IMG/VR virus record: IMGVR_UViG_2547132488_000016
Length of the DNA stretch: 6,282 nt
DNA from: a virus
Taxonomy: Duplodnaviria > Heunggongvirae > Uroviricota > Caudoviricetes
Direction: 5' to 3' (one strand)
Part shown: piece by piece, positions 320 through 4,867 of the stretch
Position numbering within the stretch: position 1 is the stretch's first letter
Layout: every line of letters begins with the position of its first letter
Notes under the pieces: generated by a model
The model's database searches: none
What the model was told of the DNA's origin: nothing
Seen by the model: the letters and a program-made list of their open reading frames with translations, nothing else
Translations under genes and position numbers: made by a program

Positions 320-682
320 TTAATGACCTGCTGCGCGGAGTTTTCCGTCAGGCTCACCGGCAAGAGTCAGTAATTGTCCCTGGTCTTCCTGCAGAATAGT
401 CAGGCGACCACCGCGATTGACATACATCGGCGTTTCGGTGGTGTCTTCTTCGGAAATTTTCCCGCGGTTAGTCGGGCGAACATATGAGAGTTTGTGTTTG
501 ATTTTCACACGGTTCTCATCAAATGGTTCGATTTCCAGGTTGAGTGAGACCTTACCTTTGGTTTTCGTGTTCATCACACCTGAAGCGACTTCACTGAGAA
601 CTGCGCCGATTTTGGTTTCAAATACGCCGCCGTCCAGCTCCCCGATAAATGCCTGCACATCAGTACTACGTTCGCTAGCCAT
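320..682 (-). CDS. Hypothetical phage protein, 120 aa
   Basis: Minus-strand ORF with TAA stop at 322..320. ATG at 682 is preceded by GAGGAG 8 nt upstream (minus strand ATGATGAGGAGCAGCAAA-ATG). The ORF track extends it to 1000, but the extra 106 codons are Arg/Cys/His/Pro-rich low-complexity sequence in the GC-rich hairpin region, so 682 is taken as the start (in-frame ATG at 700 is an alternative). No family recognised. Confidence 0.65.
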   Translation of the reverse strand: MASERSTDVQAFIGELDGGVFETKIGAVLSEVASGVMNTKTKGKVSLNLEIEPFDENRVKIKHKLSYVRPTNRGKISEEDTTETPMYVNRGGRLTILQEDQGQLLTLAGEPDGKLRAAGH

Positions 683-730
683 TTTGCTGCTCCTCATCAT
701 ATCGACCCTGCAAGGTCGGTTGGTTTCTCC

Positions 731-819
731 ACAAAACAGAGAAGAACACCTGCGGTGGCAGCCGCCCGGATGGATTGGGTTATGAGCCCGTCGTCCGGTG
801 ATGCTCTTCTCTGTTTTGT
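731..819. repeat. Perfect 15-bp inverted repeat (ACAAAACAGAGAAGA / TCTTCTCTGTTTTGT) flanking a 59-bp spacer; hairpin-forming
   Basis: Read directly: 731..745 is the exact reverse complement of 805..819. Both arms end in TTTTGT, so either transcript would carry a stem followed by a short U-tract. Lies in a 437-bp stretch (683..1119) with no convincing ORF. Confidence 0.6.
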
Positions 820-1119
820 AAAAAGGACGGTACCAGCCGGAAGCAAGGGTACAAACTGGTACCGCCAGGACTACACACAGCATAAAGTTGTGGTGCCGGG
901 TGCCTCCCGGTGCCTGGCGAAGGTTGCACACCAGACGGGTGGGTATCCACAGAAGGTCGACTGTCAGCCTCAACCTTAACCCGCGTGCGCTGAGCCGCAT
1001 TCACCACAACGCTAAGGATTCTCTTTGGTTGAAAATACTTAGCTGTTATGTGCCTGTCTTTTCACCACTTCAGGCTCGGTGGTATCCTTTTAAGCCCGTA
1101 TACATAAAAGGAAAATCAA

Positions 1120-1365
1120 ATGACTTTTGATGAAAAAGAACTTGATAATGCAATTAATAAAATCATCGTAACGTCGCTCTTTTCCTGTCTCAGCGACACT
1201 CAGCAGAAACAGTTCTACGAATCGGCTTTCAACATGATCGAGCGTTGTTGTTTCTGCGATGCCGACGAGTTACCTGAAAAAATCAGGAAACAGTTGGCTG
1301 ATGCTCTTCGAGTGCGACTTTCTGACCAATTTTCTGAAATGTGCTCTCCGAATTTGGACAAATAG
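1120..1365 (+). CDS. Hypothetical small protein, 81 aa (AT-rich accessory ORF)
   Basis: ATG at 1120 preceded by AAAGGAAAA (core AAGGA about 7 nt upstream); TAG stop at 1363..1365. Helix-like C-terminal half (PEKIRKQLADALRVRLSDQFSEM), Cys-rich centre (CCFCDAD). Lower GC than flanks. Its 3' end overlaps the convergent minus-strand ORF by 83 nt, so only one of the pair may be real over the overlap. Confidence 0.45.
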   Translation: MTFDEKELDNAINKIIVTSLFSCLSDTQQKQFYESAFNMIERCCFCDADELPEKIRKQLADALRVRLSDQFSEMCSPNLDK

Positions 1366-1579
1366 AAAAAGGCCATTTCCATTCAGGGTCTGATGGAAAT
1401 ACTTCAGCCTGTTCCAAAGCACGGCGTAAAGAGAACACAACTCCAGCCATAATCTGATGTTTCCCATTGGTCCAGCTATCGCCGCTCTGATCTACAGGGG
1501 CGGCTATGTCGTATGACCAAACGACTTCACAGTTATTGTTTAAAATCTGGACTTTCATTTCATACACCTGCTTTAACAT
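1283..1579 (-). CDS. Hypothetical small protein, 91-98 aa; first ORF downstream of the PL-like promoter
   Basis: Minus-strand ORF with stop at 1285..1283. ATG at 1579 has only a weak AGG upstream; the in-frame ATG at 1558 has AGGTG 6 nt upstream (minus strand AAGCAGGTGTATGAA-ATG) and may be the true start. Not Arg-rich, so not an obvious N-type antiterminator. Overlaps the 3' end of the plus-strand ORF 1120..1365. Confidence 0.4.
   Translation of the reverse strand: MLKQVYEMKVQILNNNCEVVWSYDIAAPVDQSGDSWTNGKHQIMAGVVFSLRRALEQAEVFPSDPEWKWPFSICPNSESTFQKIGQKVALEEHQPTVS
1359..1400 (-). terminator. Possible weak intrinsic terminator (minus strand): 8-bp AT-rich stem, 10-nt loop, then GGCC + TTTTTCTATT
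   Basis: ATTTCCAT (1375..1382) is the exact reverse complement of ATGGAAAT (1393..1400). On the minus strand the hairpin is followed by GGCCTTTTTCTATT. The stem is short and AT-rich with a 4-nt gap before the T-run, and it sits inside the minus-strand ORF, hence low confidence. Confidence 0.25.
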
Positions 1580-1683: not shown

Positions 1684-1730
1684 AAGTTGTAATCTAGTTG
1701 TTGTTTTGGTTGTTGTCAACAACTTTATGT
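1684..1730 (-). promoter_or_regulatory. PL-like leftward early promoter with overlapping operator repeats (OL-like)
   Basis: Minus strand reads TTGACA (plus 1714..1719) - 17 nt - TAGATT (plus 1691..1696). A perfect 7-1-7 palindrome GTTGTTG-T-CAACAAC (1709..1723) overlaps the -35, and the same AAGTTGT/ACAACTT half-site motif found between cI and cro recurs at 1684..1690 and 1697..1704. Confidence 0.5.
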
Positions 1731-1913: not shown

Positions 1914-2600
1914 TTACCAAGTGCGCGATGACCAGAATACTCTACCTATAACGTGAATTCTGGAACGCCTATCTTCGAAGGTGAGTATTTCATCTGGATA
2001 CTCATCTTTATTGAAACTTCTTAGAATCAGACCACCGTCAGGTAAATTGATCAATATCTTAACTCTAAGTAATACGCCATCACGTATAGCATAAAGATCC
2101 CCATCACGAATAGGAACTGTTTGGGAAACATCAACAGCAACAAAATCTCCATTGTTAAGTACAGGTAGTAAACTATTACCCCAAATTTTTACGATCTTTG
2201 CATTGGAGACACATACACCAGCTTTCCTTAAATCAATCCTTCTTAGCGGGAACCAGTCTACAGTTGATTCAACTATTTCAGCCAAACATCCATTACCCGC
2301 TGATAACTCGACATCTAGGACAGGAATGTTTGCAAAAATGTCAGGATCTAATGTTGTACTTTCAGCCTCCTTTACAACAAGGTTTGGGAAAGACGCGTTA
2401 TCCTCAATGCCCAATTGCAACCACTTTTGAGAAACCCCTAACACTTTAGCAATCTCTTTAATTTTCCGAGGCTGTTGAGTTTCTCCATTCTCGATTTTTG
2501 CTACGGATTGTTGTGAAAGCCCAATCTTTTCAGCTAGTTGCGCCTGACTCATTCCTGCTTTTTCTCTTTCGCTTTTTAGTCTTTCTGCCAATGTTTTCAC
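1914..2600 (-). CDS. CI-like prophage repressor (HTH_XRE N-terminal domain + LexA/S24 autopeptidase C-terminal domain), 228 aa
   Basis: GTG start at 2600 with GAGGGGGA 6 nt upstream on the minus strand. N-terminal HTH (MSQAQLAEKIGLSQQSVAKIENGE), candidate Ala-Gly autocleavage site (ELSAGNG), Ser in GNSLLP and Lys in LRVKIL about 40 residues apart (S24 Ser/Lys dyad). Divergent from a Cro-like gene across an operator region. Confidence 0.9.
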   Translation of the reverse strand: MKTLAERLKSEREKAGMSQAQLAEKIGLSQQSVAKIENGETQQPRKIKEIAKVLGVSQKWLQLGIEDNASFPNLVVKEAESTTLDPDIFANIPVLDVELSAGNGCLAEIVESTVDWFPLRRIDLRKAGVCVSNAKIVKIWGNSLLPVLNNGDFVAVDVSQTVPIRDGDLYAIRDGVLLRVKILINLPDGGLILRSFNKDEYPDEILTFEDRRSRIHVIGRVFWSSRTW

Positions 2601-2737: not shown

Positions 2738-2986
2738 ATGACACCTGAGCAATTAGCCTTATCAGAGGCAATCGCTCTGGCTGGTGGTCAATCAGAATTG
2801 GCTCGGAAGCTCACAGCCAGCAGTGGTCGTTTAGTAAAGCAACAACATGTCTGGAACTGGTTGAACAGAGAAAAGCGTCCCCCTGCAAAGCTCTCGATAT
2901 TCATTGAAATGACCACTGGCGTATCAAAAGAAAAATTACGTCCAGATATTTTTCAAAAGATTAAAGACTTATCAGATGGAAAGTAA
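2738..2986 (+). CDS. Cro-like / YdaS-like small HTH regulator, 82 aa
   Basis: ATG 2738 with AGGAG upstream; TAA stop 2984..2986. Small HTH protein (ALAGGQSELARKLTASSGRLVKQQHVWNWL) immediately rightward of the operator and divergent from cI, the canonical cro position. Resembles the YdaS (Cro analogue) family by motif memory only. Confidence 0.85.
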   Translation: MTPEQLALSEAIALAGGQSELARKLTASSGRLVKQQHVWNWLNREKRPPAKLSIFIEMTTGVSKEKLRPDIFQKIKDLSDGK

Positions 2987-3008
2987 CCACAGTTTTAAGG
3001 AGATAGCC

Positions 3009-3566
3009 GTGGGTAAGCATCACTGGAAAGTAGAAAAACAGCCTGAGTGGTACGTGAAAGCTGTCAGAAAAACTATCGCGGCGTTGCCGGGTGGTTACGC
3101 TGAAGCAGCTGAGTGGCTGGATGTAACAGAGAACGCTTTATTCAACCGCCTTCGTGCAGATGGCGATCAGATTTTCCCGCTGGGATGGGCAATGATTTTA
3201 CAACGTGCTGGTGGAACTCACTTCATTGCTGACGCTGTGGCGCAGTCTGCAAATGGCGTCTTTGTGTCTCTTCCTGACGTCGAGGATGTGGACAACGCCG
3301 ATATTAACCAGCGTCTGCTGGAAGTAATTGAACAGATCGGCAGTTATTCCAGACAGATTCGTTCGGCAATCGAAGATGGGGTAGTGGAGCCACACGAGCA
3401 GACAGCAATTAATGATGAGTTGTATCTGTCAATTTCGAAGCTCCAGGAGCATGCAGCACTGGTCTACAAAATCTTCTGCGCTCCAGAAAAGAGTAACGCC
3501 CGCGAGTGTGCAGCTCCGGGCGTCGTGGCGTCGATTGCTTCTGGTTGTGGAGAAACTAACGCATGA
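3009..3566 (+). CDS. YdaT-like / CII-analogue early regulator, about 185 aa
   Basis: Open frame 2976..3566. GTG at 3009 has a perfect AAGGAG 6 nt upstream (2997..3002), whereas the ATG at 2976 has no SD and overlaps the cro stop, so 3009 is preferred (2976 is the alternative). Occupies the cII position after cro. Stop TGA 3564..3566 overlaps the next ATG (ATGA), indicating translational coupling. YdaT-family assignment is from memory, unverified. Confidence 0.75.
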
Positions 3567-3921: not shown

Positions 3922-4867
3922 ATTAACCGGCTATGTATGGGATGGTTGCGCTGCGTCAGGCATGAAGTTATCCAGCGTGGCAATTATGGCCCGCCTGGCT
4001 GATTTCAGTAATGACGAAGGTGTATGCTGGCCATCAATTGAAACCATTGCCCGCCAGATTGGCGCGGGGATGAGTACCGTCAGAACGGCTATCGCACGGC
4101 TGGAAGCAGAAGGCTGGTTAACGCGTAAGGCGCGTCGCCAGGGTAACCGCAATGCGTCGAATGTTTATCAGCTTAACGTTGCGAAGCTTCAGGCAGCGGC
4201 ATTTTCTCAACTGTCAGATTCTGACCCGTCAAAATCTGACGCATCAAAATCTGACGCATCAAAATCTGACCCGTCAAAATTTGATGCGTCGAAATCTGGC
4301 AAAAAAGCGGGTTTTCACCCGTCAGAATCTGGCGGGGATCCGTCAGTAAAATCAAAACATGATCCGTCAGATAAAAAAACTTCTCGTCCGGACGCTTCGC
4401 AACCGGACACGCAGACGGATGAACAGGATTTTTTAACTCGCCATCCTGATGCGGTTGTATTCAGCCCTAAAAAGCGCCAGTGGGGGACGCAGGATGATTT
4501 GACCTGCGCACAGTGGCTCTGGAAAAAAATCATCGCCTTGTACGAGCAGGCCGCCGAATGTGACGGCGAGGGGGTTCGTCCCAAAGAACCTAACTGGACA
4601 GCCTGGGCAAACGAAATTCGCCTGATGTGTGTGCAGGATGGTCGTACTCACAAACAAATCTGCGAGATGTACAGCCGCGTCAGCCGCGATCCGTTCTGGT
4701 GCCGTAACGTGCTCAGCCCGTCGAAGTTGCGGGAAAAATGGGATGAGCTTTCCCTGCGATTATCGCCGTCCGTCAGCACGTACACCGAAAAACGCGAAGA
4801 CCCGTATTTCAAAGCCAGTTACGACAACGTGGACTACAGCCAGATCCCGGCAGGATTCAGGGGGTGA
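3911..4867 (+). CDS. Phage replication initiator (lambda O-like role): N-terminal winged-HTH DNA-binding domain, repeat-rich acidic linker, C-terminal domain; 318 aa
   Basis: ATG 3911 with GAGG 6 nt upstream; TGA stop 4865..4867. N-terminal HTH-like segment (SSVAIMARLADFSNDEGVCWPSIETIARQIGAGMSTVRTAIARLEAEGWLTRK). The gene contains tandem 15-bp iterons that encode an SKSDASKSDASKSDPSKFDASKS repeat, as in lambda O, where ori lies inside the gene. Position after cro/cII-like genes fits. Confidence 0.8.
   Translation: MSTKLTGYVWDGCAASGMKLSSVAIMARLADFSNDEGVCWPSIETIARQIGAGMSTVRTAIARLEAEGWLTRKARRQGNRNASNVYQLNVAKLQAAAFSQLSDSDPSKSDASKSDASKSDPSKFDASKSGKKAGFHPSESGGDPSVKSKHDPSDKKTSRPDASQPDTQTDEQDFLTRHPDAVVFSPKKRQWGTQDDLTCAQWLWKKIIALYEQAAECDGEGVRPKEPNWTAWANEIRLMCVQDGRTHKQICEMYSRVSRDPFWCRNVLSPSKLREKWDELSLRLSPSVSTYTEKREDPYFKASYDNVDYSQIPAGFRG
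4213..4380. repeat. Probable replication origin: five to six tandem 15-bp iterons (TCAAAATCTGACGCA and variants, 4214..4303), degenerate copies to about 4336, then an A-rich tract (4371..4379)
   Basis: Read directly: 4229..4243 and 4244..4258 are identical; 4259..4273, 4274..4288 and 4289..4303 are 1- to 4-mismatch variants; 4214..4228 is a degenerate copy containing the palindrome GTCAGA-T-TCTGAC. Two GATC sites (4337..4340, 4361..4364) and an A-rich tract follow. The layout mirrors lambda ori (iterons plus an AT-rich region inside O). Confidence 0.7.

Follow-up and report, generated by a model that had tools for sequence, protein, structure and literature searches.

The question raised by this locus is whether 437 bp of GC-rich DNA, placed within the leftward early operon of a prophage, encode a protein, a DNA-level site or a structured RNA. 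The window, i.e. the whole stretch of DNA analysed (6,282 nucleotides), corresponds to the immunity region of a lambdoid prophage and also encodes an O-like replication gene. The setting of the GC-rich stretch, positions 683-1119, is defined by the following features:

2600..1914, minus strand: cI-like S24 repressor, from annotation and profile matches
2738..2986: cro
2976..3566: CII-like gene
1691..1719, minus strand: predicted early-left promoter pL (-35 TTGACA, 17-nt spacer, -10 TAGATT; 10 of 12 consensus matches)
1579..1283, minus strand: orf33, leftward of predicted pL
682..320, minus strand: yfdP, leftward of the module described below (RBS GAGGAG at 695..690, AUG at 682..680)

The leftward order is predicted pL, orf33, the GC-rich stretch and yfdP, and the initial annotation of this DNA was right to place the stretch inside the leftward early operon. 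The predicted promoter sits within operator-like repeats adjoining the cI-like gene and, judged from its sequence, would drive transcription through orf33 and then through the module. The stretch matches Shigella phage SfV at 99.3% identity and an E. coli prophage at 99.8%. Its GC content, correctly described at the outset as exceeding that of the AT-rich flanks, amounts to 0.55-0.57 over 601-1000 against 0.35-0.40 on both sides.

Several other elements of the immunity region were recorded. The motifs CAACAACTTTA and ACAACTTTATG recur on both sides of the repressor gene (1690-1730 and 2620-2720) and are probably the OL and OR operators. The 15-nt unit TCTGACCCGTCAAAA is present in 5.3 tandem copies at 4220-4298, within the O-like replication gene; these repeats, probably origin iterons, are the cause of spurious mir-5880 matches in Rfam. 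The ORFs 1120-1365 (plus) and 1283-1579 (minus), assigned to phrog_3311 and phrog_3195 respectively, overlap by 83 nt on opposite strands, the same arrangement being displayed by ymfI/ymfJ of prophage e14, and the plus-strand ORF points against the early-left operon. The isrK and C4 antisense RNAs, found in SfV in the annotated "orf37 immunity region" (L155 27603-27791), are both absent from the window despite about 99% identity to SfV in the left arm. In another locus, L016, a DicF-like element, a core of the type described below, isrK and C4 occur in series.

A protein-coding gene, real or decayed, is the reading adopted by existing annotation. The interval 697..1007 (minus) is described by PGAP as a frameshifted hypothetical protein (pseudogene), and in the K-12 prophage e14 DNA 91% identical to the stretch is annotated as ymfH, an intact ORF of 103 codons. 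In PHROGs, too, ORFs from both strands of the stretch have families of their own. The following ORFs are classified as spurious by coding tests:

780..1007 and 697..846, minus strand: spurious ORFs
755..979 and 888..1130, plus strand: spurious ORFs

Substitutions relative to ymfH are distributed over the three codon positions as 10/11/11 in the window and 16/20/18 in ST64B, without third-position bias, and the indels (1, 1, 11, 5, 2 and 3 nt) do not come in multiples of three. The window is separated from e14 by two 1-nt indels, both located within hairpin loops. The longest ORF varies in length and frame between homologues, its frame is broken in the window, and no Pfam family matches any ORF of the stretch. 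The stretch had been described beforehand as lacking a convincing ORF, and this description holds, as its ORFs are not conserved, display no codon-position bias and have no Pfam match. Because of the missing codon-position bias and of the indel lengths, K-12 ymfH and the PGAP pseudogene are regarded as annotation artefacts; so are the PHROG families, which occur on both strands as automatic ORF calling on conserved non-coding DNA yields. An intact homologous ORF had been named as the observation that would speak for a decayed gene: K-12 ymfH is formally such an ORF, but it bears no sign of coding selection. A recombination or protein-binding site at the DNA level, also proposed initially and suggested by the TTTTGT that ends both arms of the long inverted repeat, is not supported; the compensatory changes and strand-specific G.U pairs described below indicate selection on RNA. 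A ymfH protein gene or a DNA-level site is, in our estimation, very unlikely to be what this locus holds.

This outcome bears on published phenotypes. Overexpression of a "ymfH" clone has been reported to trigger the retron-Sen2 toxin RcaT (10.1101/2020.06.22.160242). Since this clone (L003 3002-3313) would express most of the structured RNA, the triggering may be an RNA effect, and phenotypes of "ymfH" clones may more generally belong to an RNA, as the module is annotated as a hypothetical protein, a frameshifted pseudogene or ymfH.

The inverted repeats on which the initial annotation was built were re-examined. The perfect 15-nt repeat 731..745 / 805..819 is present and extends to 731-755 / 795-819 (25 nt, 84% complementary); the perfect 9-nt arms 828-836 / 856-864 are equally real, the predicted fold extending their stem to 13 bp. 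The third hairpin, 892-914, can be drawn, but the conserved structure takes in only its inner 5 bp (896-900 / 906-910). A long-range repeat that had been overlooked, 887-895 / 1002-1010, closes the whole core. Positions 892-895 pair with 1002-1005 in this covarying closing helix, named P1 below. It follows that the conserved structure is a different one from the 9-bp plus-strand hairpin, whose four outermost positions are part of P1, and that the argument for a plus-strand RNA formerly drawn from this hairpin fails. The functional strand is the minus strand, i.e. leftward and in the sense of pL. Wherever the core or the long hairpin has a G.U pair, it is on the minus strand, and covariance model scores reach 148 bits on the sense strand against at most 19 bits on the reverse strand. 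One position of the long hairpin is U.G in 17 of 19 sequences, where the plus strand would have a C.A mismatch. Read on the minus strand, the stretch contains a mosaic module of about 395 nt (1085..693), composed as follows:

1043..1085, minus strand: 5' block AUACCACCGAGCCUGAAGUGGUGAAAAGACAGGCACAUAACAG, from conservation
884..1014, minus strand: STnc100-type core, a five-helix multibranch RNA, from Rfam, model R1 and covariation
865..886, minus strand: single-stranded stretch UUUAUGCUGUGUGUAGUCCUGG, candidate seed, from conservation
820..866, minus strand: predicted intrinsic terminator at the 3' end of the small RNA, with a stem of 13 bp (866-854 / 838-826) and then CUUUUU (825-820)
731..819, minus strand: Y-shaped conserved RNA whose basal stem (20 bp) has UUUUGU at its end and carries two apical hairpins, one conserved (CCGGACGACGGGCUCAUAACCCAAUCCAUCCGG) and one variable
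703..718, minus strand: small hairpin CGACCU/GGGUCG, from the fold, just upstream of the yfdP RBS

The 5' block is kept in e14, 118970_sal3, phiES15 and Klebsiella phages (about 96% over 43-46 nt) despite unrelated flanks. Wherever it occurs, a core lies downstream of it, 43-170 nt away in most relatives. The block is not a nut site, and no promoter is recognisable in it: a sigma-70 consensus scan returned none in the block or upstream of the core, and inspection of the block by eye yielded weak hexamers only. What the SfV authors called a "putative terminator" (window about 1100-1132) is a hairpin rich in A and T that lacks a U-run and precedes the module; it is not the terminator that matters here. 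In loci of the sal3 and phiNP types (L005 about 2820-2960, L041, L075, L007), an insert of about 85 nt separates the 5' block from the core. This insert contains two hairpins with canonical T-loops (UUCGAUU and UUCAAUU), whose stems covary, plus an anticodon-arm-like hairpin; no tRNA was called in it by ARAGORN.

The identity of the core emerged from the Rfam covariance search that had been proposed in the initial annotation. Run in E-value mode, it returned one relevant match in the window, STnc100 (RF02076), which aligns over the full model to 1032..817 on the minus strand with 39.5 bits and an E-value of 4e-6, below the gathering cut-off of 47 bits. Sub-threshold matches on the leftward strand were also obtained in e14, ST64B, 118970_sal3, Cronobacter phiES15 and a Klebsiella phage, each in the non-coding gap left of the repressor, the scores of the early-left relatives all lying between 27 and 41 bits. 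A search of species-representative genomes for the invariant GTGAATGCGGCTNNGCGCACGCGG retrieved 21 loci, mostly from Escherichia, Shigella, Klebsiella, Raoultella, Citrobacter and Enterobacter, two of them being in metagenome bins labelled Veillonella and Collinsella. These loci are folded by RNAalifold into a five-helix junction:

P1, 1010-1002 / 895-887, minus strand: closing helix
P2: small UGCG/CGCA hairpin of the core
P3: core helix closing a variable insert
P4: core hairpin with a UGCAAC loop
P5, 910-906 / 900-896, minus strand: hairpin with an AGGCA loop, stacked directly on P1

A covariance model, R1, was trained on ten cores, all of the Qin, Klebsiella, Raoultella or Enterobacter type, with neither the window nor canonical STnc100 included. 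It matches the window with 76.3 bits (E 1e-23), e14 with 65 bits, the canonical STnc100 of a Stx2 phage with 64.9 bits (E 9e-20) and a divergent core in mEp460 with 21 bits. The core is related to STnc100, and the consensus fold common to both comprises the closing helix, the internal hairpins and a last hairpin stacked on the closing helix. In an alignment fitted to the R1 model, which favours the structure, 95.3% of the cells are paired against 28-43% in slid controls, 22 of the 33 pairs are changed on both sides and none of 500 shuffles is as good. The compensatory changes that had been suggested as a check are also visible in unfitted alignments. The P5 stem passes from CCGGG/CCCGG to CCUGG/CCAGG and to GGUGG/CCACC around an invariant AGGCA loop, P1 passes from GUUGUGGUG/CACCACAAC to GCAAUGCAGUG/CACUGCAUUGC, and the P4 stems are wholly different between relatives. 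The fold energy of the core alone is not significant when compared to shuffled sequence (z = -1.8) and was therefore left out as evidence, the support for the core being covariation.

The shape of this junction brings in an alternative, in which the core would act as a tRNA-like punctuation mark, recognised by RNase P or RNase III in order to cut small RNAs or mRNAs from long phage transcripts. Its helix order (closing stem, small arm, long arm, extra arm and a last hairpin on the closing stem) is that of a class II tRNA, and the junction lengths point the same way, as do the invariance of the P5 loop while its stem covaries, the canonical T-loop hairpins found just upstream in sal3, phiNP and L075, and the true tRNA genes near canonical STnc100 copies. 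The likeness is however one of topology only: the P5 loop has 5 nt instead of 7, P1 has 9-20 bp instead of 7, and there is no CCA end. ARAGORN is negative in six related loci and the Rfam tRNA model has no match in the window at E <= 1. Punctuation of this kind is improbable.

Downstream of the core, the central 14 nt of the single strand, UGCUGUGUGUAGUC (882..869), hardly vary among six divergent phages, the exception being one A/U change in ST64B and sal3. Such a stretch could serve as the seed of a base-pairing RNA. The terminator hairpin (868..815) has a predicted energy of -20.5 kcal/mol (z = -3.9) and the long hairpin (823..725) one of -49.7 kcal/mol (z = -6.9), with 0 of 200 shuffles as good in either case. 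Neither was flagged by a simple terminator scan, because their loops exceed the limit of the scan. In ST64B and phiES15, the sequence of the terminator stem is replaced wholesale and the hairpin and U-run are kept. Among the three options offered initially, a structured noncoding RNA and a terminator region are those that find support.

The terminator stem, GGCGGUACCAG...CUGGUACCG, resembles the terminator of DicF. The DicF model itself (RF00039, cut-off 48 bits) has no match in the window at E <= 1, and weak matches are obtained with the terminator copy of e14 (28.5 bits) and with the L016 element (28.6 bits). A physical link is provided by the Qin prophage of K-12, where DicF (76.7 bits, Rfam) is immediately followed by an STnc100-like core (34.4 bits with Rfam, 144 bits with R1). 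This core (L012 5637-5895) fills the gap between the DicF terminator and the dicB RBS; its closing duplex, of about 20 bp, has the length that RNase III requires. In L016, from S. flexneri, the DicF position is occupied by AUUGCUGUGUGAAGU...GGCGG...CCGCCCUUUUU, i.e. the seed motif of the window on a DicF-like terminator, directly upstream of a core. No description of an STnc100-type core adjoining dicF was found in the literature, a recent Pas/STnc100 survey makes no mention of DicF, e14 or early operons, and an earlier BLAST search found no DicF relatives in phage genomes (PMC5069750). DicF arises only via processing of a polycistronic early-left-type transcript and has no internal promoter (10.1101/2023.04.14.536235). 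By analogy, the most economical reading of the window is that of a DicF-style small RNA with a different seed, which would be released from the pL transcript. Pairing of the seed with ftsZ (-80..+60) was no better than that of shuffled seeds, in a test that also missed the 5' part of DicF itself and is hence weak; the same was observed with the whole SfV genome, both strands included.

The long hairpin that follows is a conserved element as well. The terminator/hairpin junction was searched in viral contigs and found at no fewer than 120 loci; among the first 100, the core lies just upstream of the junction in 84 of 100 contigs. The 50 sequence variants of the hairpin found in viral contigs show the Y shape, the end of the basal stem, UUUUGU, being UUGUGU in some of them. 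With the structure set by hand, 93% of the cells pair against 39-49% with slid partners, and double changes affect 36 cells against 15 in shuffles. This element may be a second terminator and/or an RNase III-type processing site, or something else. In its apex (756-794), CCGGACGACGGGCUCAUAACCCAAUCCAUCCGG is nearly invariant across the 50 variants and the neighbouring apical hairpin is freely replaced; an invariant apical hairpin is a feature that a plain terminator would not need. The small hairpin near yfdP covaries, its position being occupied in relatives by GGCGG/CCGCC or GCCCC/GGGGC hairpins. It is also present in e14, where xisE follows instead of yfdP.

We consider it fairly probable that the module is an operon-embedded small RNA which also attenuates or processes the early-left transcript. 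The module would be read leftward within the pL transcript once the cI-like repressor is removed. The main product would be a small RNA of about 200 nt, composed of the STnc100-type scaffold (1014..884), the seed (886..865) and the terminator with its U-tail (866..820), which might require Hfq and act on targets in trans. As with DicF, RNase E might cut after the scaffold and so leave a shorter RNA of about 65 nt, limited to seed and terminator. The terminator, the Y-shaped hairpin (819..731) and the small hairpin (718..703) would in addition attenuate or process in cis the transcription that continues into yfdP, or, in e14, the run-on into xisE-intE. In K-12, DNA damage by AZT co-induces ymfJ, ymfH, xisE and intE of e14 in a manner that depends on LexA cleavage (PMC11228462), and these genes belong to one co-expressed set, the YmfT iModulon (PMC12132413). 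The module of e14 is therefore transcribed and at least partly read through.

The Qin-, Klebsiella- and Enterobacter-type loci, in which the core is followed by the start of an ORF without a terminator, imply that the core need not be a small-RNA scaffold. The main rival is accordingly a leader acting purely in cis, by attenuation, RNase III/E processing or mRNA stability, which would limit the expression of the downstream, often toxic, early-left genes and give rise to no trans-acting small RNA. In its favour, the distance from the end of the core to the start codon of dicB, of small membrane ORFs or of kil-region ORFs is 25-90 nt in Qin, Klebsiella, Raoultella and Enterobacter loci, with no intervening terminator; P1 in those loci is a perfect duplex of 19-20 bp, the length that RNase III requires, and no trans target was found in ftsZ or the SfV genome. 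Against such a leader speak the layout seen in the window, where a near-invariant single strand precedes a terminator and U-tail, the standard arrangement of a base-pairing small RNA, and the recurrence of the seed motif in the position of DicF. Moreover, STnc100, PasD and DicF, which share this layout, accumulate as discrete small RNAs (PMC5331693, PMC8550237, 10.1101/2023.04.14.536235). An exclusively cis-acting role is possible, if rather unlikely.

The location of the core, between pL and the first strong terminators, also recalls processive antitermination, in which an RNA modifies RNA polymerase so that downstream terminators are passed. The put RNA of phage HK022 consists of two adjacent stem-loops of about 70 nt and is present in one copy per early operon. 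No N-like protein is annotated in SfV-type phages, which do have Q, and none was recognised in profile searches. This would suit a put-like element, as would the co-induction in e14 of the genes downstream of the module (PMC11228462). The five-helix junction of the window is however different in architecture, the only level at which put was compared, from two adjacent stem-loops. Furthermore, the whole SfV genome contains a single copy of the core, no second one having been found in its pR or late operon, and elsewhere this core is found in late operons, where Q acts. A put-like function is highly improbable.

A broader reading regards the core as a portable tRNA-like scaffold, associated with swappable seed-plus-terminator cassettes or fronting toxic genes (dicB, kil-region ORFs), which would mark RNase P/III/E cut sites in long early and late transcripts and stabilise the products. 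It is doubtful, with a small chance of being correct. If true, a single modular system would have given rise to DicF, STnc100, PasD and the "ymfH" RNA, and it would be the RNA of the "ymfH" clone, rather than a protein, that triggers the retron toxin.

The module or part of it is present in 2,864 of 5,426 complete E. coli genomes, i.e. about half, and at least 80% of the module in 1,330 of them; it is also found in active phages of Shigella, Salmonella, Cronobacter, Citrobacter and Klebsiella. STnc100 and DicF are themselves known. The early-left composite reaches the Rfam cut-off of neither; its seed and its context differ, and annotation treats it as protein. One structured core connects two small-RNA families so far investigated apart from each other, DicF from early-left operons and STnc100/PasD from late ones, and, if the analogy holds, DicF-style small RNAs with a different seed would exist in inducible phages. 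Predicted positions of RNA ends, seed and terminators are thereby available for the classic model prophage e14.

Strong operon-internal hairpins are a familiar element of phages of the lambda type, in which they occur as tL terminators and as the RNase III hairpins of sib/tI. The window resembles these systems by its strong hairpins with U-runs, located within the pL operon upstream of recombination genes, and its long stem has a size that RNase III can cleave, as in sib/tI. It differs from them in that there is no sequence similarity and in that its long hairpin is Y-shaped with an invariant apical hairpin. Among the Pas RNAs of lambdoid and Stx prophages, PasD is a relative of STnc100 and was likened to the window by description only; its structural relation to STnc100 and its Hfq-dependent stability have been reported (PMC8550237; 10.64898/2026.05.13.724894). 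PasB, which belongs to a structural-gene operon, and PasA and PasC, which adjoin holin and esterase genes, were set aside on the basis of their described contexts.

STnc100, copies of which have been detected on Northern blots (PMC5331693), shares with the window the closing helix, the UGGUGAAU junction, the P4 hairpin with its UGYAAC loop and the CACCGGGAGGCACCCGGCACCA end. In both cases a scaffold, a single strand and a terminator amount to about 200 nt in the sense of a long phage operon, the 3' intrinsic terminator being placed after the single strand and segment 866..820 of the window aligning to the terminal hairpin of the model. The differences concern the score (39.5 bits against the 47-bit cut-off), P2, P3, the 3' single strand and the genomic context. 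STnc100 and PasD are located in the late region, next to Q, stx, an esterase gene or lysis genes, the canonical copy lying between stx2B and yjhS, whereas the copy of the window is located between the cI-like repressor and yfdP, in the early-left operon, and its relatives likewise precede yfdP or xis-int. DicF differs from the window by its seed (UUUCUGGUGACG against UGCUGUGUGUAGUC) and by the order of the elements, the core preceding the small RNA in the window and following DicF in Qin. Both are nevertheless embedded in sense orientation in an operon equivalent to the lambdoid early-left operon, both consist of a short 5' single strand followed by a GGCGG...CCGCC hairpin and a U-run, and both are physically linked to the same STnc100-type core.
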